A stretch of DNA of 55,695 bases from Candidatus Taylorbacteria bacterium RIFCSPHIGHO2_02_FULL_43_32b (GCA_001820955.1 MHRK01000047.1:1-55695), one strand, 5' to 3'; shown: positions 4,981-24,689, counted from the stretch's first letter. Numbers and translations: made by a program. Notes: generated from the letters alone by a model not told the origin.

Positions 4981-4981
4981 A

Positions 4982-5870: not shown

Positions 5871-5920
5871 CCCTTGGAAACTTGGGCACTCAGTTTGTTC
5901 TTCGGGTCCTTAGACCCTTT

Positions 5921-6355: not shown

Positions 6356-6366
6356 TCAAATGATTT

Positions 6367-6389
6367 CTCCCACTACTTGTTAGTGGGAG
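6367..6389. terminator. 9-bp hairpin straddling the Avd stop codon, 12 nt after the TR
   Basis: Stem ctcccacta-cttgt-tagtgggag followed by ttttg on the + strand. Possibly a bidirectional terminator or a structured part of the TR RNA 3' region. Confidence 0.45.
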
Positions 6390-6714
6390 TTTTGTCTCCA
6401 AGGTTTTTCTTCCATCCACCAAGCATGCGCCCGACCTCATCCAATAGTAAAATGAGAGCACCGTAACTTTTATGGTCAATGACTTTATGTTCCCAGCTTA
6501 ACTGTAGAAAGAATTTGAGAAGATCAGCTTTTGCGATAGCCTGGGATACCAGGGATAGTTTCTCGAATTTGTCATAGGCAAAACAACCTCTGAATATCAG
6601 TTCGAGAAGTGAGAGGAAAATATCATCAACTTTTGCACCGATCGTATAGCGATCGACACGTTTTAAATTTGCGATTGAGCTATGCCACGCTTGATAAGCT
6701 TCTTTCGCACGCAC
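6373..6714 (-). CDS. avd: Avd-like accessory protein (four-helix-bundle / '23S rRNA intervening sequence protein' family)
   Basis: 113 aa, all-helical. ...IANLKRVDRYTIGAKVDDIFLSLLELIFRG...ALILLLDEVGRMLGGWKKNL resembles this family, which includes the Bordetella phage Avd. Confidence 0.75.
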   Translation of the reverse strand: MRAKEAYQAWHSSIANLKRVDRYTIGAKVDDIFLSLLELIFRGCFAYDKFEKLSLVSQAIAKADLLKFFLQLSWEHKVIDHKSYGALILLLDEVGRMLGGWKKNLGDKTPTNK

Positions 6715-6735
6715 AAGAACAAGCGGGATTGTTGC

Positions 6736-6746
6736 GGGGGGGGGGG
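6736..6746. repeat. G11 homopolymer tract between the divergent Avd-like and RT genes
   Basis: The run gttgc-ggggggggggg-tgac was counted directly from the sequence. Confidence 0.9.
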
Positions 6747-6772
6747 TGACTTACTGGTTTATTCTGCTCGTC

Positions 6773-7759
6773 ATGTTTACTCATACATACAATTCTATCA
6801 TTACGATTGAAAATTTACTCCTGACGTGGGAAAGGTTTTTGCGCGGCAAAAAGCACAAAAAGGATGTAATTAAATTTCAGGCCGAGCTGGCAACAAATAT
6901 AGCCAGCCTTTATGCAGACCTCAAAAACAAAACCTACATTCACGGTCCATATTCAGCGTTCAATATTTCTGATCCAAAGCCTCGCAACATCCACAAAGCA
7001 ACAGTGCGCGATAGAGTGTTGCATCATTTGATTTACAAAGAATTATATTGGCATTTTCATACTAGGTTTATTTATGATTCTTACTCATGCCGAAAGCATA
7101 AGGGAACGCACAAAGCCCTCGATCGTTTCAAGGACTTTGCTCGCAAGGTATCAAAGAATCATACGCGCACATGTTTTGTACTCAAGTGCGATATTAAAAA
7201 GTTTTTTGCGAGTGTTGACCATGCGGTTCTTATAAAAATCCTTGAACGCCATATTGCTGATCCCGATATCCATTGGCTCATAAATCAGGTTATCTCCAGT
7301 TTTCACACAACAGCTCCGGGTGTCGGATTACCGCTTGGTAATCTCACGTCTCAACTTCTCGTGAACGTATACATGCATGAATTTGACATGTACATCAAAC
7401 AGGAATTAAGAGTGAAATATTATTTACGATACGTAGATGATTTTGTGATTATGCATTATGACAAAAAAGTGATCATGGAAGCGTTGCCGAAAGTCCGCGA
7501 TTTTTTGGAAAATCGTCTCAAATTGTCGTTGCATCCGGATAAGGTTTTCATTAAGACGGCGTCTTCGGGCGTCGATTTTCTGGGATGGATTCACTATCCA
7601 AAACATCGAGTTTTGAGAACGGCGACGAAAAAGAGAATGTTGAGAAAGATCACCGCTACTTCTAAGCCAGAGACCGTCGCCTCGTACCTCGGACTTTTAT
7701 CGCACGGTAATTGCTTCAAATTGAGTCAGACGATATCACGTGGTAGACTTGCAAAATGA
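6773..7759 (+). CDS. DGR-type reverse transcriptase
   Basis: PRNIHKATVRDRVLHHLIY, LPLGNLTSQLLVNVYM (the [LIV]GxxxSQ signature of DGR RTs), YLRYVDDFVIM (YxDD) and GVDFLGW. The start is taken at ATG 6773; the ORF track begins at GTG 6746 inside the G-run. Confidence 0.9.
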   Translation: MFTHTYNSIITIENLLLTWERFLRGKKHKKDVIKFQAELATNIASLYADLKNKTYIHGPYSAFNISDPKPRNIHKATVRDRVLHHLIYKELYWHFHTRFIYDSYSCRKHKGTHKALDRFKDFARKVSKNHTRTCFVLKCDIKKFFASVDHAVLIKILERHIADPDIHWLINQVISSFHTTAPGVGLPLGNLTSQLLVNVYMHEFDMYIKQELRVKYYLRYVDDFVIMHYDKKVIMEALPKVRDFLENRLKLSLHPDKVFIKTASSGVDFLGWIHYPKHRVLRTATKKRMLRKITATSKPETVASYLGLLSHGNCFKLSQTISRGRLAK

Positions 7760-10198: not shown

Positions 10199-10238
10199 AA
10201 CGAATGATACGAATATTAACGAATGAATTACGAATAAG
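10199..10238. repeat. Word-repeat element, family F4 (acgaat/attcgt words)
   Basis: The sequence is aacgaatgatacgaatattaacgaatgaattacgaataag. Related palindromic copies lie at 35173-35275, 44578-44624 and 52603-52708. Confidence 0.55.
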
Positions 10239-10314
10239 ATGGAACCTTTGAAAATCAAATTGTGGCCGTATTGGGTGAAAGGAAATTGAAAATGTAAAAA
10301 TCAAAATGGAAAAT

Positions 10315-10428
10315 GACCCGCCTGCTTTGAAGTGACGAGGCGCGATGAAAGTAATAGTTATCGAGTAATGTATAAATGTTATGTTAAGCATTGAGACCAG
10401 AGCCAAAGCATTTCGGGCAGGCAATGTA
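10315..10428 (+). repeat. 114-bp conserved 5' module (promoter-like region plus first 16 codons), copy 1
   Basis: 113/114 identical to the reverse complement of 24186-24299. Contains tataaat just upstream of ATG 10381. Confidence 0.85.
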
Positions 10429-10746
10429 GAATTAAAAATTTCGAAGTGGAGTACTTGGCCATATTGGTTGAGGGGAGGAATGTTGTTTGCTATCGTATTC
10501 ATTCTCTGGCTATGTCTCGGGTCTTATGTTGATAAAATGATCTGTATACCAACGCTAATTGTGGCCTGTCATCAATTTGCTTCTCTTCCTCTAACAAACC
10601 AAATAATTAATCCGCTGATCTGGATGCTCTTCGGTAGTTCTGATTTGATAATATATATTGCGAGTGGAACCGTTTACTTCCTTTGCGGGGCAATTCTCGG
10701 CTGGCTCTATGGCAAAATCAAACCACATAAAATTTTGTATTCTTAA
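10381..10746 (+). CDS. Small multi-TM membrane protein, WPYWLxGG...GWLYGKIK paralog family (P1)
   Basis: MLSIETRAKAFRAGNV..WPYWLRGG..GAILGWLYGKIKPHKILYS. Paralogs are at 22367..22741 and 23922..24233. Confidence 0.6.
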   Translation: MLSIETRAKAFRAGNVELKISKWSTWPYWLRGGMLFAIVFILWLCLGSYVDKMICIPTLIVACHQFASLPLTNQIINPLIWMLFGSSDLIIYIASGTVYFLCGAILGWLYGKIKPHKILYS

Positions 10747-10877
10747 ATTTTTACATTTAACACTGTCATTTTACATTTTGATATTTAAATTTTGCATTTT
10801 AATGCTCTATGGCAAAATTAAAAATCGCAAATTGTCTCAACTAAACGCTTCACGCTAAACGCTTTACGCTTTATCTC

Positions 10878-12314
10878 ATGTCTAACCCTTTTTATATAAC
10901 CACCACTCTCCCTTACGTTAATGCGGAACCGCATATCGGTTTTGCCATGGAAATCATTCGTGCAGATATTATTGCTCGCTGGAAAAAATCACAGGGATTT
11001 GACGTTTTTTTCAACACCGGCACGGATGAGCACGGGGCAAAAATATGGCAAAAGGCGAGCGGAGAGGGCATCCCCGTACAGGAATATGTAAACCAGTGCG
11101 CCGCAAAATTTCGGGATTTGAAACAGTTGCTTAACCTTTCGGATGGCATCAATTTTATCCGTACCACGGATCCAAACCACATCAAGGCGACCGAGGAGTT
11201 TTGGAGGAAGTGTGATTTGAGGGGGTACATTTATAAAAAAAATTATAAAATAAAATATTGCGTCGGTTGTGAACTTGAGAAGACCGAATCCGAACTTGTG
11301 GACGGAAAATGTCCAATTCATCCGAATCAGGAAATTCAGCTTATCGAAGAAGAAAATTATTTTTTCAAATTTTCTGAATTTCAGAAACCGCTTTTGGAAC
11401 TTTACAAAAAACAGCCCCGTTTGGTCGTGCCCGATTTCCGTTTCAATGAGATAAAGGCTTTCGTGGAAAGGGGGCTTCAGGATTTCAGTATTTCGCGCCT
11501 CAAAACAAAAATGCCCTGGGGTGTTCCGGTGCCCGGCGACGACGAGCATGTCATGTATGTATGGTTTGACGCTCTCGTAAATTACATTTCCGCGATAGGC
11601 TGGCCCGAGGACGAGGCTAAATTTAAGAAATGGTGGCAGGAAACGGGCGGGGTAGTGCAGTATTGCGGGAAAGATAATTTGAGACAGCAGTCCGCCATGT
11701 GGCAGGCCATGCTTATGGCAGCGGACTTGCCACCATCAAAAACCATAGTTATTGACGGCTTTATTACGAAGAATGGTCAAAAAATTTCGAAGTCTTTGGG
11801 TAATACTGTGGACCCTGTCGGCATTGTTTCGGAGTATGGGGTTGATGCACTTCGATACTATGTTGCAAGAGAGCTCCATCCATTTGAAGACAGCGATTAC
11901 ACTGAGGAAGGGTTCAAGAAAGCTTACAATGGAAATTTGGCTAACGGTATCGGTAACCTTGCAAGCAGGATTACTCAAATGATGATTGCCAATCAAGTAT
12001 CAGTTGAAATCAGCGAGGAAAAAGTGGAGAACCAAATTTACATCAACGCTATGGAAAATTTTGATATAAAAGCGGCCTGTGATGAAATTTGGAAAATAAT
12101 ACAGAAAACGGACCAGAGAATTCAAGAGATTCAACCTTTTCGGTTGGTAAAAACCGATCTTCAAAAAGGCAAAGAGGAAATTGCTTATCTCGGTAGGGAA
12201 CTCAACAAGGTCGCTGTTTTACTTTCCCCGATTATGCCTCATACATCTCGTAAAATTAAGGAAGCCATTGCGGAAAATAAAAAAACTGATACGCTATTTC
12301 CACGAAAGGAATAA
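10878..12314 (+). CDS. metG: Methionine--tRNA ligase
   Basis: PYVNAEPHIGF (HIGH-like) and KISKSLGN (KMSKS-like), with CxxC...CP zinc-knuckle residues. Confidence 0.95.
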   Translation: MSNPFYITTTLPYVNAEPHIGFAMEIIRADIIARWKKSQGFDVFFNTGTDEHGAKIWQKASGEGIPVQEYVNQCAAKFRDLKQLLNLSDGINFIRTTDPNHIKATEEFWRKCDLRGYIYKKNYKIKYCVGCELEKTESELVDGKCPIHPNQEIQLIEEENYFFKFSEFQKPLLELYKKQPRLVVPDFRFNEIKAFVERGLQDFSISRLKTKMPWGVPVPGDDEHVMYVWFDALVNYISAIGWPEDEAKFKKWWQETGGVVQYCGKDNLRQQSAMWQAMLMAADLPPSKTIVIDGFITKNGQKISKSLGNTVDPVGIVSEYGVDALRYYVARELHPFEDSDYTEEGFKKAYNGNLANGIGNLASRITQMMIANQVSVEISEEKVENQIYINAMENFDIKAACDEIWKIIQKTDQRIQEIQPFRLVKTDLQKGKEEIAYLGRELNKVAVLLSPIMPHTSRKIKEAIAENKKTDTLFPRKE

Positions 12315-12421
12315 TTTCACCGCCATGATTCATAATAATAAAAAAGTTAGCTGGTCTAGTTTTGTTTAAGTGTAATGTCTGCAGTTTATTCGCTGCACAT
12401 TACAATTTTAAACAAAATTAA

Positions 12422-13075
12422 ATGATTCAACTTAACGATTCCTCCCTTAGAAAGATCATTTTGGCGCTCGCCATCTATTTGACTTCGCTATTCGCCGCAA
12501 ATACTTTGGGGCTTAAAATTATGCCTTTTATTTTCGGTTCCCATTTATCAGTGGCTGTATTTTCATTTCCGTTTGTTTTCTTAACCACAGACGTTATCGG
12601 TGAAGTTTATGGAAAACGAATCGCTAAACTTTTTGTCTTAGCCGGTTTTTTTAGCACGGCCTTGTTTATTGCCTATTCTTTTTTGTCTATCTATTTGCCA
12701 TGGTCGAGCGAGGGACTGTGGGCAAGGGAAGGCTACAATCAGATGTTTGGCGTTTCGATCCGCATAGCCGTGGCATCACTTTTAGCTTTTGTTATTGCAG
12801 AGTATCAAGATGTTTTGTCTTTTTTCTTTTGGAAGAAAAAGTTTGGAGAGAAATATTTTTGGTTGCGCTCAAATTTATCGAATCTCTGGTCGCAGTTTTT
12901 GGACACAGTCATATTTATGGTCGTGGCTTTCGCGGGTATTTATGAGACAAAAACGCTTATAAGTATTATCCTCTCATGGCGGCTCTACAAAGTGGCGATG
13001 GGATTTCTATACACCCCACTTTCTTATGCCGGAGTCAGGATTCTTCGCGGGAAGGAAGTTTCGGAAAATAAATAA
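12422..13075 (+). CDS. yhhQ: Queuosine-precursor transporter family protein (YhhQ/DUF165)
   Basis: 217 aa, ~6 TM, with FPFVFLTTDVIGEVYGKR... and ...FLDTVIFMVVAF... typical of the family. Confidence 0.75.
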   Translation: MIQLNDSSLRKIILALAIYLTSLFAANTLGLKIMPFIFGSHLSVAVFSFPFVFLTTDVIGEVYGKRIAKLFVLAGFFSTALFIAYSFLSIYLPWSSEGLWAREGYNQMFGVSIRIAVASLLAFVIAEYQDVLSFFFWKKKFGEKYFWLRSNLSNLWSQFLDTVIFMVVAFAGIYETKTLISIILSWRLYKVAMGFLYTPLSYAGVRILRGKEVSENK

Positions 13076-13773
13076 TGATAGTTCGGCCTTTAAAAACTAG
13101 AATATTTTGGGAGGGAGAAGACATTATTTCTTTCCTCTTTGAGTATGCGGGTAAATTGAAAGAAAGGTCGGTCGTTGTAGTTACCTCAAAAATTATTGCT
13201 CTATCGGAGGGGAGGACAGTATTCCCAAATAGTGCTGAAGCCAAGGAGAAAATCATTAAAGAAGAGAGCGATTTTTACATGAAGACTAAACATGTCTGGC
13301 TTACCATCAAAGACGGTATGGTGATGGCAAATGCAGGGGTGGACGAGTCAAATGCTAAGGGCAAGCTCATTCTTCTGCCCAAAGACAGTTTCCGGTCTGC
13401 GGAGCGCATCCGATCAGAGCTTCTGCAGAAGTTCGGTTTAAAGCGTTTAGGAGTATTGATTACGGACAGCAAAACGGTGCCGCTTCGTGCCGGAGTGACG
13501 GGGGTTGCGCTTGGTTATGCCGGTTTCTGTGGTGTGAGAGATTATCGGGGAAAGTCTGATATATTTGGCAGGAAGTTTGTGTATTCGAGATCCAACATTT
13601 CTGACGGATTGGCTACTGCTGCGGTTTTAACAATGGGGGAAGGACGTGAAAAATACCCAATTGCCATTATTGAGAATGCTCCGGTTCAATTTTGTCAAAA
13701 AGTGCGAAAAGCCGAATTAAAGATAAAATTGGAGGACGATATGTACAGGCCTCTTTTTTCAGGGAAAAAATGA
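13075..13773 (+). CDS. CofE/FbiB-like (F420-0:gamma-glutamyl ligase family) protein
   Basis: VVVVTSKIIALSEGR, ANAGVDESNA, LGVLITDS, PLRAGVTGVALGYAGF. The start overlaps the yhhQ stop by 1 nt (TAATG). Confidence 0.7.
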   Translation: MIVRPLKTRIFWEGEDIISFLFEYAGKLKERSVVVVTSKIIALSEGRTVFPNSAEAKEKIIKEESDFYMKTKHVWLTIKDGMVMANAGVDESNAKGKLILLPKDSFRSAERIRSELLQKFGLKRLGVLITDSKTVPLRAGVTGVALGYAGFCGVRDYRGKSDIFGRKFVYSRSNISDGLATAAVLTMGEGREKYPIAIIENAPVQFCQKVRKAELKIKLEDDMYRPLFSGKK

Positions 13774-14612
13774 TTCACCAAACAACAAATACTCGCTGTT
13801 TAATCAAGGCGGCTCGGAATCTTGGCTTGCGGGTCGAGATATTCGACAAGAATGGCAATTTTGTGATGGTTAGAGAGGGCGAAAAAAAATTATTTTTCGC
13901 CAACTACGCCACTCCTTTTAATAGTGCCTCTGTAGAAAAAATTTGCAAAGACAAGGAGTTCACCCATTTACTGTTGGAGAGCGTTGTTCGAATGCCGAGA
14001 GCAAAAGGTTTTTTCGATCCGCTTTATAATGAGGGGGGCGAGATCAAAAACGGCCGAGACACTTTGGCCTCTTTGACGCAAAAAATAATGGAGAGTTTTA
14101 CTTTACCTCTAATTTTAAAGCCAAATTCGAGAGCCAGGGGTTTAAACGTCGCTCTTTGCATCGAAAGCCGCCACGTCTACGATGCCTTGGAGAGAATATT
14201 TGATCATAGATCCGAGTATTATGATTACGTAGCTTTGGCCGAGGAATACGTAAAAATCGATAAAGAGTATCGGGTTGTAGTATACGATAAAAAAATAGCA
14301 CTTTTATATGAAAAAGATATTTCAGGCGCCGAATTCAACGGCAATTTAAGCCCACTTCATTGGGACGGAGCCAAGGCTGTGATTATAGAAGACGAGAATT
14401 TAAAGAAAAAACTTGCTGAATTTATATCACCAATATTCGATCAATTTGAACTAAATTTCGCGGGGCTTGATATTATTATTGGCAAGGATAGCAAAATATA
14501 TCTTTTGGAGGTAAATACCCAGATAGGATTTGCAAATTTCGTGAAAGACAACGGCGAAAAACCGCTTATTGAATTTTACGAAAAAATATTTAAACCCACT
14601 TTATATGAATAA
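13770..14612 (+). CDS. ATP-grasp (RimK/CofF-like) ligase
   Basis: LILKPNSRARGLNVAL...EYRVVVYDKKIALLYEK...AGLDIIIGKDSKIYLLEVNTQIGF. ATGA overlap with the preceding gene. The ORF track starts earlier, at 13692. Confidence 0.7.
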   Translation: MIHQTTNTRCLIKAARNLGLRVEIFDKNGNFVMVREGEKKLFFANYATPFNSASVEKICKDKEFTHLLLESVVRMPRAKGFFDPLYNEGGEIKNGRDTLASLTQKIMESFTLPLILKPNSRARGLNVALCIESRHVYDALERIFDHRSEYYDYVALAEEYVKIDKEYRVVVYDKKIALLYEKDISGAEFNGNLSPLHWDGAKAVIIEDENLKKKLAEFISPIFDQFELNFAGLDIIIGKDSKIYLLEVNTQIGFANFVKDNGEKPLIEFYEKIFKPTLYE

Positions 14613-14791
14613 TACGTATACCTACCTGCTTGGTTTAGTGGTTTTTTGTTTTGTCTTTTTGTCCGTAGTGGTTTGGCGGCATTTGAGCCACAGGCGGTTT
14701 CTTAATCGCATACAGAAAGTTTTTTGACGTCTGACTTTTTTGCCGGACGTTTTTTGTTGAACCATTATTCATAATTCGTTATTCTTAATTC

Positions 14792-15679
14792 ATGATTCTC
14801 AAGTATATGGACGCACACGGGCATGTGAATTTCGTGGCCTATAAAGACGATAGGGGGGAGACGATAAAACGCTCGCTTGATGAGGGTGTCTGGATGGCTG
14901 TTGTCGGCACTCAAAAAGACACTTCGAAATCGGCAGTAGAATTGGCGGAGAAATATAAAGAAGGAGTTTACGCCATTGTTGGTCTTCATCCTATACATAC
15001 GGATAAATCATTTCACGATAAGGAAGAGCTGGGTGTTGGGGGAGCGGAGTTCACATCTCGAGGCGAACAATTTGACTATGATGCATATAGAAAAATGATA
15101 GAAAATTCAAAAGTTGTGGCCATTGGAGAGTGCGGGCTCGATTATTACCGTGTCGATTCGGACGGGACAAATTTGAAGAAACAGGAGGACATTTTTCGTC
15201 AGCATATCGAACTTTCTATCGAGTCGAAAAAACCGCTCATGCTTCACATCCGAAATGGTTCGGGCAGGTCGGCATATATCGATGCTGTTAAAATTTTGAG
15301 TAGCTACAAATCACGGTTAACAAATATTGGTGATGTCCACTGCTATACAGGCAGTTATGAAGAGGCCAAAGGTTTTCTGGATTTAGGATTTAGCATTTCT
15401 TTTACGGGGCTTGTCACTTTTCCTCTTCGAAAATCCGAGGCTAAAGGAAGAGAAGCTGGTGCGCGAAGTTACGATGAAATTGTCAGAGCGATACCGATTG
15501 AGCGAATTTTGGCAGAAACCGATTGCCCATACCTTGCTCCACAGCCGTATCGGGGCAAGCGTAACGAGCCCTTATATGTAAGCGAGGTGGTCAAAAGTAT
15601 AGCCGAAATAAAAAAGCTGGAGTTGGAAAATACAAGAGAGCAGATTCTCGAAAATACGCTTAAATTTTTTGGATTGTAG
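14792..15679 (+). CDS. tatD: TatD family metal-dependent hydrolase/DNase
   Basis: MDAHGHVNF (HxH), ECGLDYY, LMLHIRN, DVHCYTGS, ETDCPYLAP. The start may be ATG 14807. Confidence 0.85.
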   Translation: MILKYMDAHGHVNFVAYKDDRGETIKRSLDEGVWMAVVGTQKDTSKSAVELAEKYKEGVYAIVGLHPIHTDKSFHDKEELGVGGAEFTSRGEQFDYDAYRKMIENSKVVAIGECGLDYYRVDSDGTNLKKQEDIFRQHIELSIESKKPLMLHIRNGSGRSAYIDAVKILSSYKSRLTNIGDVHCYTGSYEEAKGFLDLGFSISFTGLVTFPLRKSEAKGREAGARSYDEIVRAIPIERILAETDCPYLAPQPYRGKRNEPLYVSEVVKSIAEIKKLELENTREQILENTLKFFGL

Positions 15680-15699
15680 GGTTTGGTGCGGTCAAAGAG

Positions 15700-15722
15700 A
15701 AAGCCGTCGAGAACGACGGCTT
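15700..15722. terminator. Bidirectional hairpin terminator
   Basis: Stem aagccgtcg-agaa-cgacggctt, just after the tatD stop. It also overlaps the stop of a 39-codon minus-strand ORF. Confidence 0.55.
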
Positions 15723-15898
15723 AAGAATGTAAGATGGGGAGAAAAAAGCCCCACCGCCCTACAATGAAAAAAAGAGCGATGGGGCTTCCACTCCGACCAG
15801 TCAACATGACCCCGCAGAGGCAAATTACTACTTTCAGCATACTCCAATAAAAAATTTGGTCAAGTACTTTTCGCTTGCGACTTTCCAATAGGGAAATT

Positions 15899-15928
15899 TT
15901 GACTTCTGTATCATTATTGTGCTAATCT
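15899..15928 (+). promoter_or_regulatory. Sigma70-like promoter candidate for rpsF-ssb-rpsR
   Basis: TTGACT, 18-nt spacer, TAATCT, with TG one base upstream of the -10. Confidence 0.35.
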
Positions 15929-15961
15929 CACTCCTACAAATTAGTAGTTATAAAGTAAATA

Positions 15962-16480
15962 ATGGAAGAAACAAATAAGGTCACCGAAGCCACCGTGGAT
16001 ACGGCAGAAGAAAAAGCCGAAGGAAAAATCTACGAAATTGGCTACCACATAGTCCCATCGGTGCCTGAGGACAAATTGGGAGCCGAGGTATCCTCTATAA
16101 AGGATATTCTCGAGAAGCAGAAGGCCGTTGTCGTGAGCGAAGAGTCGCCAAAGTTGCGCCAGTTAACCTACGAAATGCGCAAAGAGTTTGCCGGAAAGTA
16201 TCAAAAATACAATTCCGCCTATTTCGGCTGGGTAAAATTTGAGGCTGAACCTACAGATGCGCTCAAAATCGAAGCCGCCTTTAAGAAAAATCCTCAGATT
16301 TTGAGGTATCTTCTTATAAAAACTGTGCGAGAAAATACTATGACGGCACCAAGAATTCCTTCATACAGAAAGAGCGAGGTGCCGAAGTTTGAGGAGAAAA
16401 AAGAAGCCGATCAGACTCCTAAGAAAGAGGTTTCTGAAACAGAGCTTGATAAGGCCATTGATGCGGCCATAGCGGAGTAG
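15962..16480 (+). CDS. rpsF: 30S ribosomal protein S6 (with N- and C-terminal extensions)
   Basis: KIYEIGYHIVPS...LRQLTYEMRKEFAGKYQKYNSAYFGWVKFEAEP...ILRYLLIKT. Confidence 0.88.
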   Translation: MEETNKVTEATVDTAEEKAEGKIYEIGYHIVPSVPEDKLGAEVSSIKDILEKQKAVVVSEESPKLRQLTYEMRKEFAGKYQKYNSAYFGWVKFEAEPTDALKIEAAFKKNPQILRYLLIKTVRENTMTAPRIPSYRKSEVPKFEEKKEADQTPKKEVSETELDKAIDAAIAE

Positions 16481-16688
16481 CTGAAAAATAAAGAGCGTGG
16501 CGATTATATTTTTCGCTACCCCGTTAAGTTCTTTCAAATACAGCCTCCACGCATTTACCGTTTTCTCAATCCGTGGTACTATTGGCAGGGAGTGTTGTCT
16601 ATTACAAACAATTTGAAAGAATCTGCCCAGGGCGGATACTTAACGGGGTGATGATTTTTATACTCACTTCGTTCGTTAAAAATCTATC

Positions 16689-17150
16689 ATGTACATAAAC
16701 AAAGCAATTCTTTACGGAAATCTGACGAGAGATCCGGAAATTCGGGCACTGCCCTCGGGTATTCAGGTGGCATCTTTTGGTATCGCCACAAACCGCGTTT
16801 ACAAAGACAAAAACGGGGCCAAGCAGGAATCGACAGACTTTCACAACATAGTGGTTTTTGGAAGACAGGCTGAGACGGCCGCACAGTACCTTAAAAAGGG
16901 GCAGGGAGTCTTCATAGAAGGAAGAATCCAAACGAGGAGTTGGGATGACAAAGACGGCCAGAAAAAATATCGCACGGAAATAGTGGCAGACAGAGTGCAG
17001 TTTGGACCAAAAACGACTCCGGGAGGGAATTATAGCGGGGGTCAAAGTGCGACAGAAAAACCTGCTCCAGTCTCAAAACCCAAGGATAAAGAAGAGGGGG
17101 CGATCGAGTATCCTCAAGAAGAAATTAATCCGGAAGACATTCCTTTTTAA
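16689..17150 (+). CDS. ssb: Single-stranded DNA-binding protein
   Basis: NKAILYGNLTRDPEIRALPSG..VASFGIATNR...TDFHNIVVFGRQAE, with the acidic tail ending DIPF. Confidence 0.95.
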   Translation: MYINKAILYGNLTRDPEIRALPSGIQVASFGIATNRVYKDKNGAKQESTDFHNIVVFGRQAETAAQYLKKGQGVFIEGRIQTRSWDDKDGQKKYRTEIVADRVQFGPKTTPGGNYSGGQSATEKPAPVSKPKDKEEGAIEYPQEEINPEDIPF

Positions 17151-17170
17151 ACCGAAGGTTTAAAAAGGAA

Positions 17171-17299
17171 TTAAAAATGTAAAGATCAAAATTCAAAGTG
17201 ACAATGCAAAATTATAAAATGGAATACGTTAAATAGTTTTTCTCCAATTTTTGCATTTTAAACTGTCATTTTACATTTTGATATTTGAATTTTACATTA
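17171..17299. repeat. Family F1 palindromic element (empty, no passenger) between ssb and rpsR
   Basis: Arms are aaaatgtaaagatcaaaattcaaagtgacaatgcaaaatt and aatttttgcattttaaactgtcattttacattttgatatttgaattttacatt. Confidence 0.7.
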
Positions 17300-17350
17300 C
17301 GCTTGCTACAACACATAATTTACAAAATTTTAGAAACTTAAATACAAAAC

Positions 17351-17563
17351 ATGGCTTTTGCTAAAAAACAGTGCTATTTCACTCAAAACAATATCAAACA
17401 CGTTGACTACAAGGACTTGGAACTTTTGAAGAAGTTTCTGGGTCCTCAAGGCAACATTATGGCCAGGAAGCGCTCAGGTGTTTCTTCAAAATACCAAAGA
17501 AAGCTTGCTGAGGCGGTAAAACGTGCCAGATACATGGGGCTTTTGCCATACATCGCTCGATAA
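17351..17563 (+). CDS. rpsR: 30S ribosomal protein S18
   Basis: CYFTQNNIKHVDYKDLELLKKFLGPQGNIMARKRSGVSSKYQRKLAEAVKRARYMGLLPY. Confidence 0.9.
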   Translation: MAFAKKQCYFTQNNIKHVDYKDLELLKKFLGPQGNIMARKRSGVSSKYQRKLAEAVKRARYMGLLPYIAR

Positions 17564-17695
17564 ATATAAGTGGTTCACACAGCAATTCTGCGGGTCTCTT
17601 GTGCCGTGGCCGTTTTTGCTGTTATCCACATCAACGAACAGATTTTGTTTTAAGTTTGTATAATATAGCCATAGCAAAGTAAATTTTTCATAATT

Positions 17696-20600
17696 ATGGC
17701 AAAACTTCACGAGCGTCTCCTTTCGAAATTTCTGTTTTATGCCAAATGGCACAAAAATCCCTTGCATGCCCCCTTCCATTTTGGCGTATTTTTTGGATTA
17801 AGTTTGGTTCTGACCGCAACACTTATTTATGCCGTTACCAATTGGCCTAACGTGTATGCATCGGCCGCGGCTGTAGCCGCTTTTGACAAATCTGCCGTCA
17901 AAAATGAACAAGCGTCTCAAAAGATGGAATCTTTGAAAATTGCGGATAACTATATTGTTGTTCTGAATAGGGGAGAGAGAGGAGCGGAGGTTCAGAAGTC
18001 GTTTGGTCTTAAGGCCAAACAAGAGTACCGACACGCGATAAATGGTTTTTCGGCTTATATTCCGAAGGGTCGGCTTGAAGCACTCAAAAAAGACAAAAGA
18101 GTTTCTTATGTGGAAGAGGATGTTACAGTTTACGCTCTGGCTCAGGCTGTTCCGAGTGGTGTAAGAAGAATCAAGGCAAACCAGTCTAATGTGGCATTGA
18201 TCGATGGCGTGGATAACAGAGTCAATGCGGATGTCGCTATCATCGATACAGGTGTGGATTTTACTCATCCTGATCTCAATGTTTATCAGCATGTTTCTTT
18301 TGCGGTTGATTCAACGGACGGGATGGATGGACACGGTCATGGTACTCATGTGGCCGGAACGGTGGCCGCGCTCGACAACAATATTGGTGTGGTCGGAGTT
18401 GCTCCGGGCGCAAGGATTTGGGCTGTTAAGGCGCTCGATAATTCTGGAGCCGGAGCACTTTCCATTATTATAAAGGCTGTCGATTATGTTACGGAACACG
18501 CGGATGAGATTGAAGTAGCCAACATGAGTCTTGGTGGTCAGGGTAGTTCTGGATCCCTTCGACAAGCAATTGCGACAAGTGTTGGCAAGGGGGTTGTCTA
18601 TGTGGTCGCCGCTGGAAATTCTTTTTTCGAAGTCTATGGTGGTGACAGTCAATTGGGCACCTCGGACGATTTTTTTCCGGCCGCTTATCCTGAAGTCATG
18701 ACCGTAAGCGCTATTGTTGATACGGATGGCCAAAGTGGGGGCGCGGGGGTGTCAACGAGTTATGGGGAGGATGATACCCTTGCCAAGTATTCCAATTGGA
18801 GCAATGTTGTCGACGTGTCAAACCCTGTTGTGTCTCCGGGAGCATCAATTGATATCGCCGCTCCTGGAACTATAATTTACTCAACATATAAAAATGGTGC
18901 TTATGCAACTATGTCTGGGACGTCTATGGCCAGTCCCCATGTTGCTGGAGCCGTTGCTCTCTATATTTCTGAAAACGGAAGGGCTAGCGATGCCACAGGT
19001 GTTTATCGCATTCGACAATCTATAATCGATTTAGCCGAACCACAGAGTGCGTGGGGAGTTAATAAAACAACCCCTCTCTCAAACGATCAGAAGCCGGAAG
19101 GCCTTATTGATGCCGGCAATCTAACAACTGGAGGATCTAATTTGCGACCAACCATCTCAATTTCAAGACCAGTTTCGCAGGCAGTGTTTAATGAAGGTCA
19201 AATGATCGCTTTTTTGGGGAATGCTGCTGACGCGGAAGACGGTGATCTCACGGCAAAAATTGAATGGACTTCGAGTATCGATGGCGTTTTGGGTAAAGGA
19301 GGATCATTTTCAAGAAATTTGAGTTCCGGAGATCACGTTATTTCTGCCAAAGTGAGCGACTCTCTGGGTTATTCGGCTATTGCTACTGTAAGAATTTCCG
19401 TGGTTAGCTCAATCAATAGTGTGCCATCAGTATCTATTCTTTCGCCATTGAACGGGGCAGTGCTTACGACTGGAACATTGGTCGGATTTACAGGTTCGGC
19501 GATTGACCAAGAAGACGGTGATATTAGTTCCCGAATTTCATGGACATTTAATGGATCGGTGCTCGGCACTGGTTCAGATGTCAATGTCACTTTTGGTAAA
19601 GGAGTTTTTAGAATTCTGGCCTCAGTCACCGATTCTGGTTTGAAGACGGCAACTACATCTGTCGAAATTTCAGTTGTTGATAATCCGGAAAATACTGCGC
19701 CGAGCGTTTCCATTATTACTCCGGCCGAAACCTCAAGTGTGATAAAAGGCACGGAAGTGCGTTTTTCTGCTTCCGCGTCCGATAACGAAGAGGGAAATAT
19801 TACTAATCGTATCAAGTGGGCGTCGAGTATTGATGGAAATTTTGGAACAGGCGGCGATCTTCTTTATAGCTTGTTTTCTTCGGGAGTTCACACCATTTAC
19901 GCCAACATAACAGATTCGAACGGGCTTACGTCTTCGGATGCGGTTTCTCTTACAGTTGAGGAAAAACAAGCCGATACTGTGCCCCCTTTGGTTTCAGTGA
20001 CTTATCCTTCTGCTAACTCTGTTGTTTCCGGAGTTGTAACGATGTCTGCTTCGGCTTCAGATAATGATGGAATTGATCGGGTACAATTTATGGTGGACGG
20101 GGCTGATATTGGCGTTTCCGATAGCGTCGCGCCTTATACGATTGCGTGGAATACTGATGACTATACAAGTGGAAGTCACGTAATAAGTGCGGTCGCTTAT
20201 GACACGACTGGCAACAAAACGATTTCTTCGCTCGTTTCGGTAGTGGTTGATCGAGTGCCAACCGTAACAATTACGTCTCCAACGGAAAACACTTTTTTGC
20301 CGGGTCAAGCCGTCACCTTTAGGGCGTCGGCCATGGATAAGGAAGACGGTGATTTGTCGATCAAAATAAAATGGTCTTCCAATCTGGATGGGATACTCGG
20401 CTTGGGTAGTTCTCTTTCAAAATCTCTTTCGGTCGGAACGCACATCATAACTGCCGAAGTTTTTGATTCGAGAGGACAAACAGCCTCGGCCTCACTTATC
20501 GTTACGGTTGCTAATAAACTAGGACTATCAGCATCAACTGATAAGTCGATTTACAATAATAAGGACACGGTCAAAATTACTGCCTTAGTCTCATCAAATT

Positions 20601-20824
20601 CAGTGCCGGTTTCCGGAGCTTTTGTTTCTGCTACAGTCGTCAGTCCTACGGGAAGGCAAACGGCATATTTATCCGGCACTTCCGATAGTTTCGGTAAGGT
20701 TGTATTGACCTATCAGATTAATACTAAATCTGGAGGGGCCGGTTCATACGGAGTTAATCTTACTGCCAGCAAGACCGGATTCGCGAACGGAACTTTGTCG
20801 ATCACTTTCAAGGGCAATAAGTAA
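17696..20824 (+). CDS. Membrane-anchored subtilisin-like (S8) serine protease with tandem Ig-like repeats
   Basis: N-terminal TM and an I9-like propeptide. The catalytic residues sit in AIIDTGVD (Asp), HGHGTHVAGT (His) and SGTSMASPHVAG (Ser). These are followed by ~5 repeats of about 95 aa containing ..A.D.EDGDL...I.W.S..DG.LG.G.. Confidence 0.9.
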   Translation: MAKLHERLLSKFLFYAKWHKNPLHAPFHFGVFFGLSLVLTATLIYAVTNWPNVYASAAAVAAFDKSAVKNEQASQKMESLKIADNYIVVLNRGERGAEVQKSFGLKAKQEYRHAINGFSAYIPKGRLEALKKDKRVSYVEEDVTVYALAQAVPSGVRRIKANQSNVALIDGVDNRVNADVAIIDTGVDFTHPDLNVYQHVSFAVDSTDGMDGHGHGTHVAGTVAALDNNIGVVGVAPGARIWAVKALDNSGAGALSIIIKAVDYVTEHADEIEVANMSLGGQGSSGSLRQAIATSVGKGVVYVVAAGNSFFEVYGGDSQLGTSDDFFPAAYPEVMTVSAIVDTDGQSGGAGVSTSYGEDDTLAKYSNWSNVVDVSNPVVSPGASIDIAAPGTIIYSTYKNGAYATMSGTSMASPHVAGAVALYISENGRASDATGVYRIRQSIIDLAEPQSAWGVNKTTPLSNDQKPEGLIDAGNLTTGGSNLRPTISISRPVSQAVFNEGQMIAFLGNAADAEDGDLTAKIEWTSSIDGVLGKGGSFSRNLSSGDHVISAKVSDSLGYSAIATVRISVVSSINSVPSVSILSPLNGAVLTTGTLVGFTGSAIDQEDGDISSRISWTFNGSVLGTGSDVNVTFGKGVFRILASVTDSGLKTATTSVEISVVDNPENTAPSVSIITPAETSSVIKGTEVRFSASASDNEEGNITNRIKWASSIDGNFGTGGDLLYSLFSSGVHTIYANITDSNGLTSSDAVSLTVEEKQADTVPPLVSVTYPSANSVVSGVVTMSASASDNDGIDRVQFMVDGADIGVSDSVAPYTIAWNTDDYTSGSHVISAVAYDTTGNKTISSLVSVVVDRVPTVTITSPTENTFLPGQAVTFRASAMDKEDGDLSIKIKWSSNLDGILGLGSSLSKSLSVGTHIITAEVFDSRGQTASASLIVTVANKLGLSASTDKSIYNNKDTVKITALVSSNSVPVSGAFVSATVVSPTGRQTAYLSGTSDSFGKVVLTYQINTKSGGAGSYGVNLTASKTGFANGTLSITFKGNK

Positions 20825-20880
20825 GGAGTTATTGGCGAAGCGAAAAGCGCGAAAATTCGAACGACCGAGTATTTTCGGTG

Positions 20881-21040
20881 TTGACAGGGTAAATTTTGGA
20901 GAAACTAATAAAATTTGTCTCGTCCTCTGCCTGTGTGTACGCGCAGGCAGGCATCCTCGCCCTAAAGGGACGGGGAATTCCCCCCCCAATAAGCGAACAA
21001 CAAATAACAAAGTGGCCAACGGCCACTTTGTTATTTGTTG
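20881..21040 (+). ncRNA. Candidate orphan small RNA unit (promoter + three hairpins + terminator)
   Basis: TTGACA (20881-20886) with an A/T-rich -10 region (actaataaaat). Hairpins are ctgcctg..caggcag and ggggaattcccc, plus a long terminator hairpin at 20997-21040. No convincing ORF. Confidence 0.25.
20997..21040. terminator. Long bidirectional terminator hairpin (also downstream of efp)
   Basis: Stem aacaaataacaaagtggcc-aac-ggccactttgttatttgtt. Confidence 0.7.
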
Positions 21041-21058
21041 TAAAAAATTCTATTTGAT

Positions 21059-21628
21059 TTAGTTTACTCTTTCTACGTATTCTCCAGTCGTCGTGTTTAC
21101 TCGGATCATTTCGCCCTCGTTGATGAAGAGTGGGGCGTTAATCATAGCGCCTGTTTCGAGTTTAATTTGCTTTGAGCCTCCTTTTGCGGTGTCGCCTTTG
21201 ACCGCAGGAGGCGCTTCAACCACTTTTAATTCCACTTTGATGGGAAGGCGAAGGCCGACCTGCTTTTCTTTCCAGGTTTGGAGGCCAATCAGAGTATTTC
21301 CTTTGAGGAATTGACCACCTTGGCCGACCTCTTCGGCTGTCATTTTGAAGCGCTTAGACGGGTCTTTGACTTCGCAGAACCAGAATTCGCCTTTGTTATT
21401 GTACAGATACTTAATTTCACGTTCGTCGATTTCGGCTTCTGGCACTTTGTCGGATTGGTGAAAGGTAACTTCAGCAACTCTGCCACTCATTAAACTCTTA
21501 AGTTTTGTTTGATTTACCGGTTTTCTCTGTTGCATTCGAAAGACGCGGGAGTCGAGTACTTCCCAGGGTTCACCTTCGTGCTCAATATATTTGTGGACAG
21601 TTATTTCGTTGTAGTTGATCAGTGACAT
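21059..21628 (-). CDS. efp: Elongation factor P
   Basis: 189 aa, with ...EGEPWEVLDSRVFRMQQRKPVNQTKLKSLMSGR... and ...VVEAPPAVKGDTAKGGSKQIKLETGAMINAPLFINEG.... Confidence 0.95.
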   Translation of the reverse strand: MSLINYNEITVHKYIEHEGEPWEVLDSRVFRMQQRKPVNQTKLKSLMSGRVAEVTFHQSDKVPEAEIDEREIKYLYNNKGEFWFCEVKDPSKRFKMTAEEVGQGGQFLKGNTLIGLQTWKEKQVGLRLPIKVELKVVEAPPAVKGDTAKGGSKQIKLETGAMINAPLFINEGEMIRVNTTTGEYVERVN

Positions 21629-21632
21629 AAGG

Positions 21633-21665
21633 ATAGGCGCCAGGCTTTAGGCACTAGGCGCTAGG
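21633..21665. repeat. Word-repeat element, family F5 (ctaggc/cctag words)
   Basis: The sequence is ataggcgccaggctttaggcactaggcgctagg. Related copies lie at 34543-34672, 39146-39227 and 46131-46213. Confidence 0.5.
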
Positions 21666-21750
21666 AAACTAATAAGATAGGGGAGAGTTTAGCTGAGGTT
21701 GCATTTTTTGGCAACTATCGCATTATGTGTGAAGTTTGCCGTAAATAGTT

Positions 21751-21927
21751 ATGAGCGAAAAAAAATGTCATCTGTGTGGGGCTTCTCTATCTGCAGAAGA
21801 AGAGCAGCGGATTGACGGAAAACCTGTTTGTGATGATTGTTACTATGAGCAGATGGGGAAAGAAATCGATTGCAATCCTATAATAAATCCAGATCTGGTA
21901 TTAGAGCGCCAGCAACATAAAGACTAG
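21751..21927 (+). CDS. 58-aa zinc-ribbon-like small protein (below the ORF-track cutoff)
   Basis: Hand translation: MSEKKCHLCGASLSAEEEQRIDGKPVCDDCYYEQMGKEIDCNPIINPDLVLERQQHKD. It has a CxxC...CxxC arrangement. Confidence 0.4.
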   Translation: MSEKKCHLCGASLSAEEEQRIDGKPVCDDCYYEQMGKEIDCNPIINPDLVLERQQHKD

Positions 21928-21988
21928 CATTCCTTGAAGGGGGTGCTTTTTCTTACCTAGTGTTTAAAAAGGATTTGTATTTTATACT

Positions 21989-22083
21989 TCTTTCAGTTTT
22001 TCTCTAATCAGCTTCAAAATCTCGTTCTCTATCTTGGAGTTTTCCTTAAGGAATTGTCTGGTGGCGTCATAACCGCGGCCAAT
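21989..22083 (-). pseudogene. Detached duplicate of the recA 3' end (last ~31 codons)
   Basis: 94/95 identical to 22808-22902. It would encode ..[32 protein letters not shown], in frame behind the TGA stop of ORF 22087..22341. Confidence 0.85.
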
Positions 22084-22086
22084 TGA

Positions 22087-22341
22087 TCAGAATTTGAGCT
22101 TAACGCCAGTCTTCTTAGCAATTTCTTTAATCCATTCTTCGTGACGGCTGAGCTGCATTTTAATAGCGCTGTATTCAATTCGAAGGTCATCGATAACTTT
22201 TGCAAGTCCATCCACGGCCGTGGTTAACCCTTGCACGACTTCTTTGAGTGAAGAAACATCCTCCACTAGCTCTTTCAGGTCGTTTTTAGTTGCCAGAACG
22301 GAAGTTAATTTATCGATGTCTTTGTCTGTAAGCATGTTCAA
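22087..22341 (-). CDS. 84-aa coiled-coil hypothetical protein; the last codons are derived from recA sequence
   Basis: MNMLTDKDIDKLTSVLATKNDLKELVEDV... The C-terminal GVKL codons (gttaagct) match recA ..AVKLG.., followed by a 15-nt insert carrying the stop. Confidence 0.55.
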   Translation of the reverse strand: MNMLTDKDIDKLTSVLATKNDLKELVEDVSSLKEVVQGLTTAVDGLAKVIDDLRIEYSAIKMQLSRHEEWIKEIAKKTGVKLKF

Positions 22342-22366
22342 AGTTTAATTTGGTCAAAGCGAGCTG

Positions 22367-22741
22367 TCAATTTTGTGAAGTCGCGGAGCTTTTGCGAGTT
22401 TTTATTTTGCCGTAAAGCCAGCCGAATAGTGCACCTGCAATAAACGTAAAAACAATATTTAGCAGAACACCAGAAGGAGTCGGTAGCGCCCCTAGTTCAG
22501 TTTGTCTGAACATTCCTTCGTCTGTAATTATTATACTTGGAATGAAAGAAATTAATCCATTACCGATTAGGGTTAATGGTCCCATAATTTTCAAAAGTGA
22601 ATGCAAAAGACCTCCTTCTTGCTGCGGTACAATTGAATTATCTATTAAAATTGGAATGCTGATTATTATTACAACAGCCGATATCATAACACCGCCTTTA
22701 AACCAATACGGCCAATTTTCCCAAGTTTTCATGTTTGGCAA
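22367..22741 (-). CDS. Small multi-TM membrane protein, WPYW...GWLYGKIK family (P2)
   Basis: MPNMKTWENWPYWFKGGVMIS...AGALFGWLYGKIKTRKSSATSQN. Confidence 0.65.
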   Translation of the reverse strand: MPNMKTWENWPYWFKGGVMISAVVIIISIPILIDNSIVPQQEGGLLHSLLKIMGPLTLIGNGLISFIPSIIITDEGMFRQTELGALPTPSGVLLNIVFTFIAGALFGWLYGKIKTRKSSATSQN

Positions 22742-22801
22742 TTATTTGTAACTTTTGTTTCCCGCTTTCGCTGGAACGTTTTACGCTTCACGTTCTGGGT
22801 T

Positions 22802-23848
22802 CTACGATTCCTTCAGTTTTTCTCTAATCAGCTTCAAAATCTCGTTCTCTATCTTGGAGTTTTCCTTAAGGAATTGTCTGGTGGCGTCATAACCGCGGCC
22901 AAGCTTAACGGCTTCGCCTTTGCCGTCCGGGGCGGGGAATTCATATGACTGACCAGCTTTTTTTATCAATCCAAATTTCTCGCCGAGAGCAATAACTTCA
23001 CCTTCGCGCGAAATTCCTTCGTTATACATAAGATCGAATTCGGTCTGTTTAAAGGGAGCAGCCACTTTGTTTTTGACTACCTTTACTCTCACTCTTCCGC
23101 CGACAACTTCTTCGCCTTTTTTGATTTGAGCAATGCGGCGGATATCCAATCTAACCGAAGTGTAGAATTTGAGTGCTTTGCCTCCTGGGGTAGTCTCTGG
23201 GTTGCCAAACATTACGCCGATTTGCATGCGGATCTGGTTGATGAAAATGACGATGGTCTTTGAGCGGGCCACAATGGCGGTCAATTTGCGAAGAGCTTGT
23301 GACATTAGTCTAGCCTGTTTGCCGACGTGCATGGCGCCCATGTCTCCCTCGATTTCGTCTTTAGGTGTTAGTGCCGCGACAGAGTCGACGACCACTACAT
23401 CAATTTTCCCCGAACGTACCAAACTTTCGCAGATCTCAAGAGCTTGCTCGCCGGTGTCCGGTTGGGAAATGAGAAGATCATCAATTTTTACTCCGATTCT
23501 TTTTGAATATTCGGGGTCCATGGCGTGCTCGGCATCTATAAAAGCGCAGATGCCGCCCTTTTTTTGGGCTTCGGCGATTACGTGAAGTGACAGTGTTGTT
23601 TTTCCGCTTGACTCGGGGCCGAATATTTCGATGATGCGTCCGCGAGGAAGTCCTCCGACTCCAAGAGCCGCATCAAGTCCGATAGAACCTGTCGGGATGG
23701 CGTCAATGCCGACTTTAGGCTTTTCGCCGAGCTTCATAATGGCTTCTTCGCCGAACTTGGTTTTGATTGCGTCTATCGTATTTTGGATATCAACTTGACC
23801 TACAGTCTTTGCTTCTTTCGGGGCTTTATCTTTTGTTTTGAATCCCAT
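22802..23848 (-). CDS. recA: Recombinase RecA
   Basis: [17 protein letters not shown] (Walker A), [38 protein letters not shown]. Confidence 0.97.
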
Positions 23849-23921
23849 GATAGTTTAGATTACTAAATAATTTAAAATTTAAAGATCAAAATGCAAAATG
23901 ACAATTAAAAATTGAAAAATT

Positions 23922-24233
23922 TCAAGTCGACGAATGCCGGGTCTTGATTTTTTTGATGGACCAACCGATAAAAAGTGCTACCAAGGAAACTGAAAAAAGT
24001 ATGCTCAGGTATACCACATAGTCATTTTTCAAATTAGTGAGGATGATGCCGAATCCTTTCGGACATGGACTATACCCATTTTCTGCCAAGCCTACGCAGG
24101 ATGGCTGAGCCATTAACCATAAATCCAAAATTATACTAATGGTTACCCCTAATATTATCCCTCGCAACCAATATTTTTGTGACTTTACATTGCCTGCCCG
24201 AAATGCTTTGGCTCTGGTCTCAATGCTTAACAT
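23922..24233 (-). CDS. Small membrane protein (P3) sharing its first 16 codons with P1
   Basis: MLSIETRAKAFRAGNV then a divergent body ..YWLRGIILG...LFIGWSIKKIKTRHSST. Confidence 0.55.
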   Translation of the reverse strand: MLSIETRAKAFRAGNVKSQKYWLRGIILGVTISIILDLWLMAQPSCVGLAENGYSPCPKGFGIILTNLKNDYVVYLSILFSVSLVALFIGWSIKKIKTRHSST

Positions 24234-24299
24234 AACATTTATACATTACTCGATAACTATTACTTTCATCGCGCCTCGTCACTTCGAAGCAGGCGGGTC
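24186..24299 (-). repeat. 114-bp conserved 5' module, copy 2 (inverted relative to 10315-10428)
   Basis: Direct comparison shows one mismatch (t/c within gctttgaag vs gcttcgaag). Confidence 0.85.
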
Positions 24300-24323
24300 A
24301 TTTTTCATTTTGATTTTTGCATT

Positions 24324-24689
24324 TTACATTTCTTTTGGTGTACTCATGACCATAAACTCAAGTAGTTTTTCGGTTTCTTTGCCGAAACGATCTTTAGCTT
24401 CAAATTTGATTATATTATAGCCACTCTGGAGTATCAATTTTTCGGAAAACGCCCCAGTTTCGTCAATAAAAATGGGGGAGTCGTTCAATGTTATGGAGTT
24501 GACCCTAAAGGCTTTTCCTCTTACTTCCACTTGAGGTCCGAAGATCTCTGTTTTATCTTGCGGGTAGATGATTTGTATTTCCGGACCAGAGAGATAATCA
24601 CGGCTTTCGTAATATATGTACCAGATCAAAAAACTTCCTGCTACGATCGAGAGGATAATCGAAAATATCATTTTTGCTCCTTTTCTCAT
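24324..24689 (-). CDS. Membrane-anchored hypothetical protein (single N-terminal TM plus a beta-rich domain)
   Basis: 121 aa. ATGA-type 4-nt overlap with the ftsK stop. Confidence 0.6.
   Translation of the reverse strand: MRKGAKMIFSIILSIVAGSFLIWYIYYESRDYLSGPEIQIIYPQDKTEIFGPQVEVRGKAFRVNSITLNDSPIFIDETGAFSEKLILQSGYNIIKFEAKDRFGKETEKLLEFMVMSTPKEM

Follow-up and report, generated by a model that had tools for sequence, protein, structure and literature searches.

A small palindromic insert at a fixed site in repeat arms may have given two membrane-protein genes of a Candidatus Taylorbacteria genome their present starts

Palindrome-associated elements derived from IS200/IS605, and those of the REP/RAYT type, are hairpin-forming and non-autonomous, and insert 3' of a fixed short target without duplicating it. 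[quoted passage not shown] Rickettsia palindromic elements (RPEs), of ~100-150 bp, are palindromes that reside in protein-coding genes and are partly translated with the host protein, giving a translational fusion (PMC10969869). Here we describe a 105-nt palindromic insert that occurs, in inverted orientation, at the 5' ends of two genes for small membrane proteins (genes A and B) on a stretch of 55,695 nt from Candidatus Taylorbacteria bacterium RIFCSPHIGHO2_02_FULL_43_32b (GCA_001820955.1 MHRK01000047.1:1-55695), hereafter the window. For this bacterial group, we found nothing relevant on MITEs and no description of a repeat family in the literature.

We suspect that the insert is a MITE-like or RPE-like element with TIRs, inserted at one fixed position of an AT-rich repeat arm, and that the copy at gene B was recently derived from the one at gene A; we hold this reading to be moderately probable. 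Like RPEs, the insert would be a palindrome of similar size inside an open reading frame (ORF), partly translated with the host protein. Unlike RPEs, which typically are read through in frame, it contains stops in the host frame, donates a start codon at the extreme 5' end of the gene, and always occupies one target in an AT-rich repeat; only its last 42 nt lie in the ORF, which is entered from an internal ATG. With MITEs it shares its small size, its TIRs and the lack of a transposase ORF, but it has no target-site duplication, is strictly site-specific, has no demonstrable promoter and has no known parent insertion sequence (IS) element. A resemblance to IS200/IS605 and REP elements may be seen in that all five inserts described below directly follow the fixed target AAAATGAC without duplication. 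However, the 55.7-kb window showed no gene for a Y1 transposase, RAYT or TnpB, and the subterminal hairpins are not clearly defined. In the Hin/Gin, fim and Rci shufflon systems, too, inverted repeats lie at the 5' ends of two alternative genes for surface or membrane proteins, whereas the repeats studied here are 13.8 kb apart around housekeeping genes, with no adjacent recombinase and no credible second orientation among 18 junctions.

The first-pass annotation of the window had proposed that positions 10315-10428 and 24186-24299 are near-identical inverted blocks. Aligning 10200-10760 (+) against 23900-24400 (-) confirmed that 10315-10428 (+) equals the reverse complement of 24186-24299 with a single mismatch, at 10329 (T in A, C in B), and a repeat search reported the pair as an inverted repeat (161 nt, 94% complementary, spacing 13,737 nt). 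Exactly two occurrences of a 37-mer from the block are present in the window, compared with none expected from 100 shuffles. The layout first described also stands: 66 nt are followed by an ATG at 10381 (24233 on the minus strand) and by 16 codons (MLSIETRAKAFRAGNV), and both genes thus carry a common 5' block that includes the start codon. The TATAAAT upstream of the ATG lies at 10371-10377 and leaves a gap of 3 nt (first given as 5-10 nt).

Immediately 3' of the block the DNA of A and B diverges abruptly, and the break-point coincides with the end of the 105-bp insert, beyond which only AATGTA (6 nt) is common to both. Within the insert 1 of 105 positions differs, and in the upstream arm ~5 of 37. 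Similarity between A and B extends upstream of the 114-bp block as far as 10278/24336, and this upstream part of the 161-nt similarity is a repeat with ~15 copies in the window. Judged from its sequence, the block is a composite (3 arm bases, the 105-bp insert and 6 arm bases) and not one unit. The genes, inserts and arms are as follows.

10381-10746, plus strand: ORF A, a 121-aa small membrane protein (121 aa also in the NCBI call), first 14 codons from the insert
23922-24233, minus strand: ORF B, a 103-aa small membrane protein, first 14 codons from the insert
10318-10422, plus strand: palindromic insert, copy A, 105 nt (CCGCCTGC...GGGCAGGC), boundary ambiguous by one C
24192-24296, minus strand: palindromic insert, copy B, 105 nt, one base different from copy A by alignment
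10283-10317, plus strand: 5' arm of A, one of 15 arms, with the putative ancestral ATG at 10306-10308 (ATGGAAAATGAC)
10765-10802, minus strand: 3' arm of A, inverted relative to the 5' arm, from the repeat search
24297-24331, minus strand: 5' arm of B, from the repeat search and sequence reading, with the putative ancestral ATG at 24308-24306 (ATGAAAAATGAC) and also the stop of the 121-aa gene upstream
23868-23902, plus strand: 3' arm of B, inverted relative to the 5' arm, between the B stop and recA, from the repeat search

The insert is closed by the inverted termini GCCTGC...GCAGGC, and its ends read CCGCCTGCTT...GCATTTCGGGCAGGC. The terminal inverted repeats, GCCTGCTT(T)GAAGTG and CATTTCGGGCAGGC, can form ~14 imperfect base pairs and are kept in all four distinct copies of the insert. 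The same holds at the RNA level, where GCCTGCUU.GAAGUG (GCCUGCUU.GAAGUG) pairs with CAUUUCGGGCAGGC in 4/4 distinct copies. The only coding capacity of the insert, which is 105 nt long in the window and 104 or 99 nt elsewhere (contigs L022 and L032, respectively), is its 14-codon 3' segment.

Removal of the insert restores both genes to a familiar form. Relative to the reconstructed ancestral ORFs, the insert follows codon 4 and precedes codon 5 in both A and B. Without 10318-10422, A reads ATGGAAAATGAC joined to AATGTAGAATTAAAAATT..., which encodes MENDNVELKISKWSTWPYWLRGG and has an N-terminus of the family type (MENDNVELKISKW...). This restored start is identical at 15 of 23 residues to that of a relative, P0032 (MENENVKFKIFRWGTWPYWVRGG), and also matches P0007 (MENNNIKFKIVSWKSWPYWLRGG), encoded at the syntenic locus of a distant relative. 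That locus (contigs L027 and L028) carries genes for an M16 peptidase and an AI-2E transporter, family genes and metG, and its second family gene opens with ATGGAAAATAACAATATCAAATTTAAAATT..., encoding MENNNIKFKIVSW. B without its insert reads MKNDNVKSQKYWLRG..., close to P0038 (MKNNKKYWLRG).

With the insert in place, the ancestral frame runs MENDPPALK-stop-RGAMKVIVIE-stop-CINV and then MLSIETRAKAFRAGNV, with stops at 10333 (TGA) and 10366 (TAA). Because the insert places two stops in the old frame, the old start codon is cut off. The first start after a stop is the in-frame ATG at 10381, which lies within the insert, 14 codons from its 3' end. Judging from the reading frames, this ATG is most likely the only usable start, and it would provide both proteins with the shared peptide MLSIETRAKAFRAG. 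That the 16 codons are translated, as first claimed, is thus most likely, given that no other start keeps (WP)YWLRGG, the N-terminal motif best conserved in the family, in both A and B. NCBI uses the insert ATG for A and B; other gene callers begin A at Met34. An intron or spliced intervening sequence was considered and rejected, since the insert is too small, matches no known intron family and is not kept at an in-frame length (104 nt in L022).

Gene A (10381-10746) is flanked by a gene of the AI-2E transporter family and by metG, and gene B (24233-23922) by a 121-aa gene and recA. The claim that the two belong to one protein family despite the divergence of their DNA agrees with an exhaustive profile search of 1.84 billion representatives, which places A and B in a family of 41 proteins at E <= 0.001. 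From these sequences, the family is real and has no name: a Pfam scan of A, B and their relatives matched no family, and word-indexed protein searches with A and B recovered only themselves and one deletion variant. Its members are mostly 77-122 aa long, with N-termini M..(W.)WPYWLKGG or MKQKRYWLRGG and C-termini GWLYGKIKNRK; A and B have in common only YWLRG, LWL and the GW..KIK C-terminus. In 33 of 37 relatives the motif [YW]W[LVI]xG begins at residue 5-9. A and B, where it begins at residues 28 and 21, respectively, thus have atypically long N-termini. The only relative that has the shared N-terminal peptide is P0004, in the version MLSNEIGDKAFRAGNV. A population variant of B (P0043, JGI) has lost its stop codon and gained 15 aa.

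The arms provide a reference for the uninterrupted state. There are 15 of them in the window, built of AT-rich heptamer repeats (AAAATGN)n and mostly arranged as inverted pairs able to form long hairpins (positions include 2993, 17169-17298, 39481-39614, 49635 and 54152-54253). Twelve of the 15 are uninterrupted, with ...AAAATGAC followed by AATGC, AATT or AGTT. At exactly that point the other three contain GC-rich DNA, namely the 105-nt inserts of A and B and a shorter one at 43822. The 12-mer of arm A that holds the ancestral start is also present in an unoccupied arm, at 49658-49669. The sites compared are these.

49635-49688, plus strand: unoccupied arm, a paralogous empty site; the 21 nt up to the target equal those of arm A, then ...GAC followed by AATGCAAAATGC
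43787-43856, plus strand: arm (43787-43821) plus a 35-nt GC-rich hairpin (43822-43856), directly after the same target AAAATGAC
46724-46762, plus strand: related GC-rich hairpin ending in GGGGCAGGCGGG, outside any arm, recognised by repeat family and fold

The hairpin at 43822-43856 (z = -3.9) ends in GGGCAGGC like the inserts of A and B, is followed by AAT, and lies inside an insertion in the 23S rRNA gene. A and B are the only genes in the window that lie between the two arms of one pair. Small GC-rich palindromes occur at other arm positions in related genomes (CCCTCCTTCGCTAAGAGCTACGGAAGGG and CCCTGCCTGCCGGCAGGTAGG; L022 411-443 and L024 381-401). The window also holds other intergenic arrays with a 7-nt period: GAATTAT at 37945-42168, ACGAATG at 10200, ACGCTTT at 10845, and TAGGCGC at 21634 with its complement at 46178.

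Four distinct copies of the insert were found: those of A and B, one on contigs L022 and L023, and one on contig L032. The window sequence itself recurs in many groundwater metagenome assemblies and matches contig MHSD01000068.1 of assembly GCA_001821185.1. The L022/L023 copy, also from groundwater metagenome assemblies, belongs to the P0004 gene of another organism, and it is 88% identical, 104 nt long and at the same target; at this length, read-through in frame is not being maintained. A genome labelled Candidatus Saccharibacteria (CAZYRJ010000041.1) is the source of the L032 copy, which occupies the same target in an arm-loop-arm hairpin just downstream of valS. Its 5'-terminal 11 nt and 3'-terminal 23 nt are the same, its interior is unrelated (99 nt in all), and no membrane-protein gene accompanies it. 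Ends that are conserved around an interior free to vary are more in keeping with recognition of an element by its termini than with a structured RNA. Including the short insert at 43822, all five inserts (A, B, 43822, L022/L023 and L032) share their position relative to the target.

Between L022 351-940 and L023 171-760 there is a block of 590 bp that is 100% identical and comprises a remnant N-terminal fragment, the arm, the insert, the P0004 gene and the start of a downstream gene, which by sequence reading encodes a putative MazF-like toxin. Outside this block the two contigs are unrelated upstream, and downstream they are partly identical with scattered mismatches. The identical block could reflect either recent movement of a cassette or chimeric short contigs.

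In the sequence of events that we favour, a terminus-recognised element would have entered the arm at ...AAAATGAC^AATG..., within the stretch of arm that doubles as the initial codons of A and B. The insert would stop the old frame and donate an in-frame ATG, and each of the two proteins would then have MLSIETRAKAFRAG ahead of its own sequence. In the A lineage the copy is probably old, because a diverged copy occupies the same site in a related organism, and the B copy was probably made recently from it, because the two differ at 1 of 105 positions. A and L022 both have T at 10329, which makes the C of B the derived state. As a side effect, the two copies form an inverted repeat with a spacing of 13.8 kb that breaks or confuses assemblies and could recombine occasionally; nothing indicates that this is its function.

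Several observations weigh against this reading. Pfam scans and precomputed domains of the larger ORFs revealed no transposase gene in the window. No target-site duplication was found: the flanks read ...AAAATGAC/element/AATGT... and the empty arms AAAATGACAATG, with at most one C doubled. Within the genome, as far as the 55.7-kb window was searched, there are only two full copies plus two short relatives. An orthologous empty site, that is, the same locus in another strain without the insert, was not found, and all nine complete B contigs have the insert; the expected insert-free B arm would read ATGAAAAATGACAATGTA.... Exact scans for a 37-mer in GTDB species genomes gave no match, for a 20-mer in JGI metagenomes one chance match (the unrelated L021), and for a 20-mer of the 3' end in GTDB genomes four matches, of which three were due to chance and one was real (L032). 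A scan of IMG/VR gave none, and L032 is the only further real copy from the GTDB, JGI and IMG/VR scans together. The 16 codons of the block show four non-synonymous and no synonymous changes between the window and L022, and therefore the peptide is not visibly under purifying selection. Finally, we infer translation from the internal ATG from the reading frames.

It is possible, if on balance unlikely, that no mobile element is involved and that ectopic RecA-mediated conversion via the homologous 5' arms copied the arm and insert of A onto B. Copies of one dispersed arm precede both genes and provide some homology, recA is in the window, and conversion would leave the same outcome, a near-identical patch in diverged paralogues. 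However, the flanking homology is very short, the longest perfect runs being 13 and 8 nt on the upstream side and 6 nt on the downstream side. The repeat pair comparison places arm B closer to arm 43787 than to arm A, and a conversion tract would need to match the insert's own ends. Given that high identity ends at the ends of the element, transposition or another homology-poor way of copying is likelier than homologous conversion, for which more extensive homology in the flanks would be required. Conversion also leaves unexplained the L032 copy, which has the same ends and target, another interior and no gene, and the short insert at 43822.

Decidedly unlikely, in our judgement, is a wider proposal, in which the arms, the GC-rich inserts and the WPYWLRGG...GKIKNRK genes between inverted arms would together make up an undescribed mobile-cassette system of bacteria of the Candidate Phyla Radiation (CPR) type. 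The arms would then be terminal repeats, and the arm-loop-arm hairpins found between genes and within 23S rRNA insertions would be derivatives that lack a gene. A site-specific transposase of the single-strand type, leaving no target-site duplication, would move the inserts. If such a system exists, the 590-bp identity of L022 and L023 would be a trace of its mobility.

We give little credence to the idea that the block is a functional cis-regulatory RNA, either a structured 5' leader or a small RNA, kept identical by selection. Its predicted RNA fold is a closed multi-branch structure with the closing helix at the block ends (-30.5 kcal/mol, z = -2.2) and the start codon within a small hairpin loop, and two of the L022 substitutions convert G-U to A-U pairs. 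On the other hand, shuffled sequences fold as well as the insert alone does as DNA (z = -0.4 to -1.1), and covariation contributes essentially nothing (-0.06 kcal/mol) with an invariant closing stem, from four sequences only. Rfam 15 gave no match for the window at the gathering threshold (except rRNA and tRNA) nor for 10230-10500 at E <= 10. The insert is absent from most family members, and in L032 the interior is not conserved and no gene lies 3' of the insert. Identity at 104 of 105 positions beside saturated flanks points to recent copying rather than selection. The leaderless mRNA of the first-pass annotation is not supported either: TATAAAT is replaced by TGTAGAT in the L022/L023 copy, and a scan for promoters and terminators gave counts not above shuffled background, with TATAAAT in no two-hexamer match.

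The assembled junctions bear on the remaining proposal, that recombination at the inverted copies serves to invert a 13.8-kb segment, or belongs to a cassette system that swaps gene bodies behind a constant expression and N-terminal module. Among contigs that carry the block, eight join the A upstream flank to the A body, nine the B upstream flank to the B body, and one (L004) the B upstream flank to the A body; two more break inside the block. The repeats are inverted, each carries the start codon of a surface or membrane protein, and the L004 junction of B upstream flank, block and A body is the one expected from inversion. L004 is a SPAdes contig with 3x coverage that is 100% identical to 24690-24186 and ~10324-11040 and then continues into the metG of another organism. 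It was rejected as proof of inversion, as it is chimeric within metG ~600 bp past the junction; a second low-coverage contig, L017, is similarly chimeric in recA. A 45.6-kb contig from another sample covers both copies and is collinear with the window. Programmed inversion of the metG-recA segment, or the cassette exchange once suggested for this locus, is very unlikely, given that 17 of 18 junctions, from several samples, are of the reference type and never shuffle the flank-linked single-nucleotide polymorphism, that the sole recombinant is chimeric, that the searches used for transposases revealed no invertase, integrase or recombinase gene in the window, and that only two gene bodies carry the block, which is diverged in P0004 and appears to be inserted into a pre-existing 5' coding end rather than swappable. 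No third gene body with the block turned up in the window or the DNA scans, and no search with the peptide alone was made. We see no reliable sign of inversion in these contigs; at low frequency, RecA-mediated inversion across the 105-161 bp of identity is possible.

If the insertion that we favour is correct, it shows how, in a very small genome, a gene's start can be rewritten by a tiny palindromic repeat, with the old start lost and a new one donated. The outcome is two unrelated-looking paralogues with an identical 5' region and N-terminal peptide. A common expression module on divergent bodies can thus arise by insertion of selfish DNA and not by programmed variation, which calls for caution when such modules are interpreted. 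In metagenome assemblies, repeats of this kind also lead to broken contigs and chimeric joins. That insertion into heptamer arrays is site-specific and duplication-free may offer a lead to the enzyme that moves them.

Two further features at locus A concern the history of the gene family.

10239-10289, plus strand: remnant N-terminal fragment (MEPLKIKLWPYWVKGN, then a stop) of an upstream tandem family gene, ending in the arm, from a sequence match
10802-10858, plus strand: duplicate C-terminal fragment (MLYGKIKNRKLSQLNASR and LYGKIKNRKLSQLNASR, each before a stop) after the 3' arm, recognised by the family C-terminal consensus GKIKNRK

The N-terminal fragment matches the beginning of the first family gene (94 aa) at the syntenic locus in L027 (MKFWKDLPYWIKG) and a fragment in L022/L023 (MKFWKNWPYWVMGN, then a stop). 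It was considered as a leader peptide and rejected, since a simpler explanation is that it remains from an upstream tandem gene that is intact in L027. A 15-nt direct repeat, GCTCTATGGCAAAAT, at 10704-10718 and 10804-10818 bounds the second C-terminal fragment. From these sequences, locus A appears to be what erosion has left of a tandem array of family genes, and A may be under relaxed selection. A population variant of A (P0002, SRR3989344) has a frameshifting deletion between two CAAACCA repeats (~10595-10719) and reads into the downstream C-terminal fragment.

Other parts of the window are also rich in repeats and insertions. A diversity-generating retroelement at 4753-7759 comprises a target ORF (5172-5870) with a variable repeat (5740-5861), a template repeat (6234-6355), a bAvd-like gene (6373-6714, minus strand) and a reverse transcriptase (6746-7759) with LGNLTSQ and YVDD. 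Of its 19 template/variable mismatches, 18 are at template adenines; no link between this nearby retroelement and the block was found. Just upstream of it, a 55-nt sequence (...CGAGGCATATCGAGATATGTCGAGG...) forms a palindrome (4546-4657) and recurs inverted 27.7 kb away (32350-32404).

Approximately the last 95 nt of recA recur 820 bp downstream as a 95-nt direct repeat with 99% identity (21988-22082 and 22808-22902), and two small ORFs (22367-22741 and 22087-22341) separate the copies. The arrangement suggests that the 3' end of recA received an insertion bringing a replacement copy of the gene end. The 23S rRNA gene (39301-46107) is split by several insertions of 154 to ~970 nt, as is typical of CPR bacteria. 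One of these encodes a LAGLIDADG endonuclease (42362-43276), and further ones are AT-rich arm hairpins (39480-39630 and 45611-45760). Several partial 5S-like repeats (46825-47343) surround the sole 5S rRNA gene recognised by Rfam (46987-47094).

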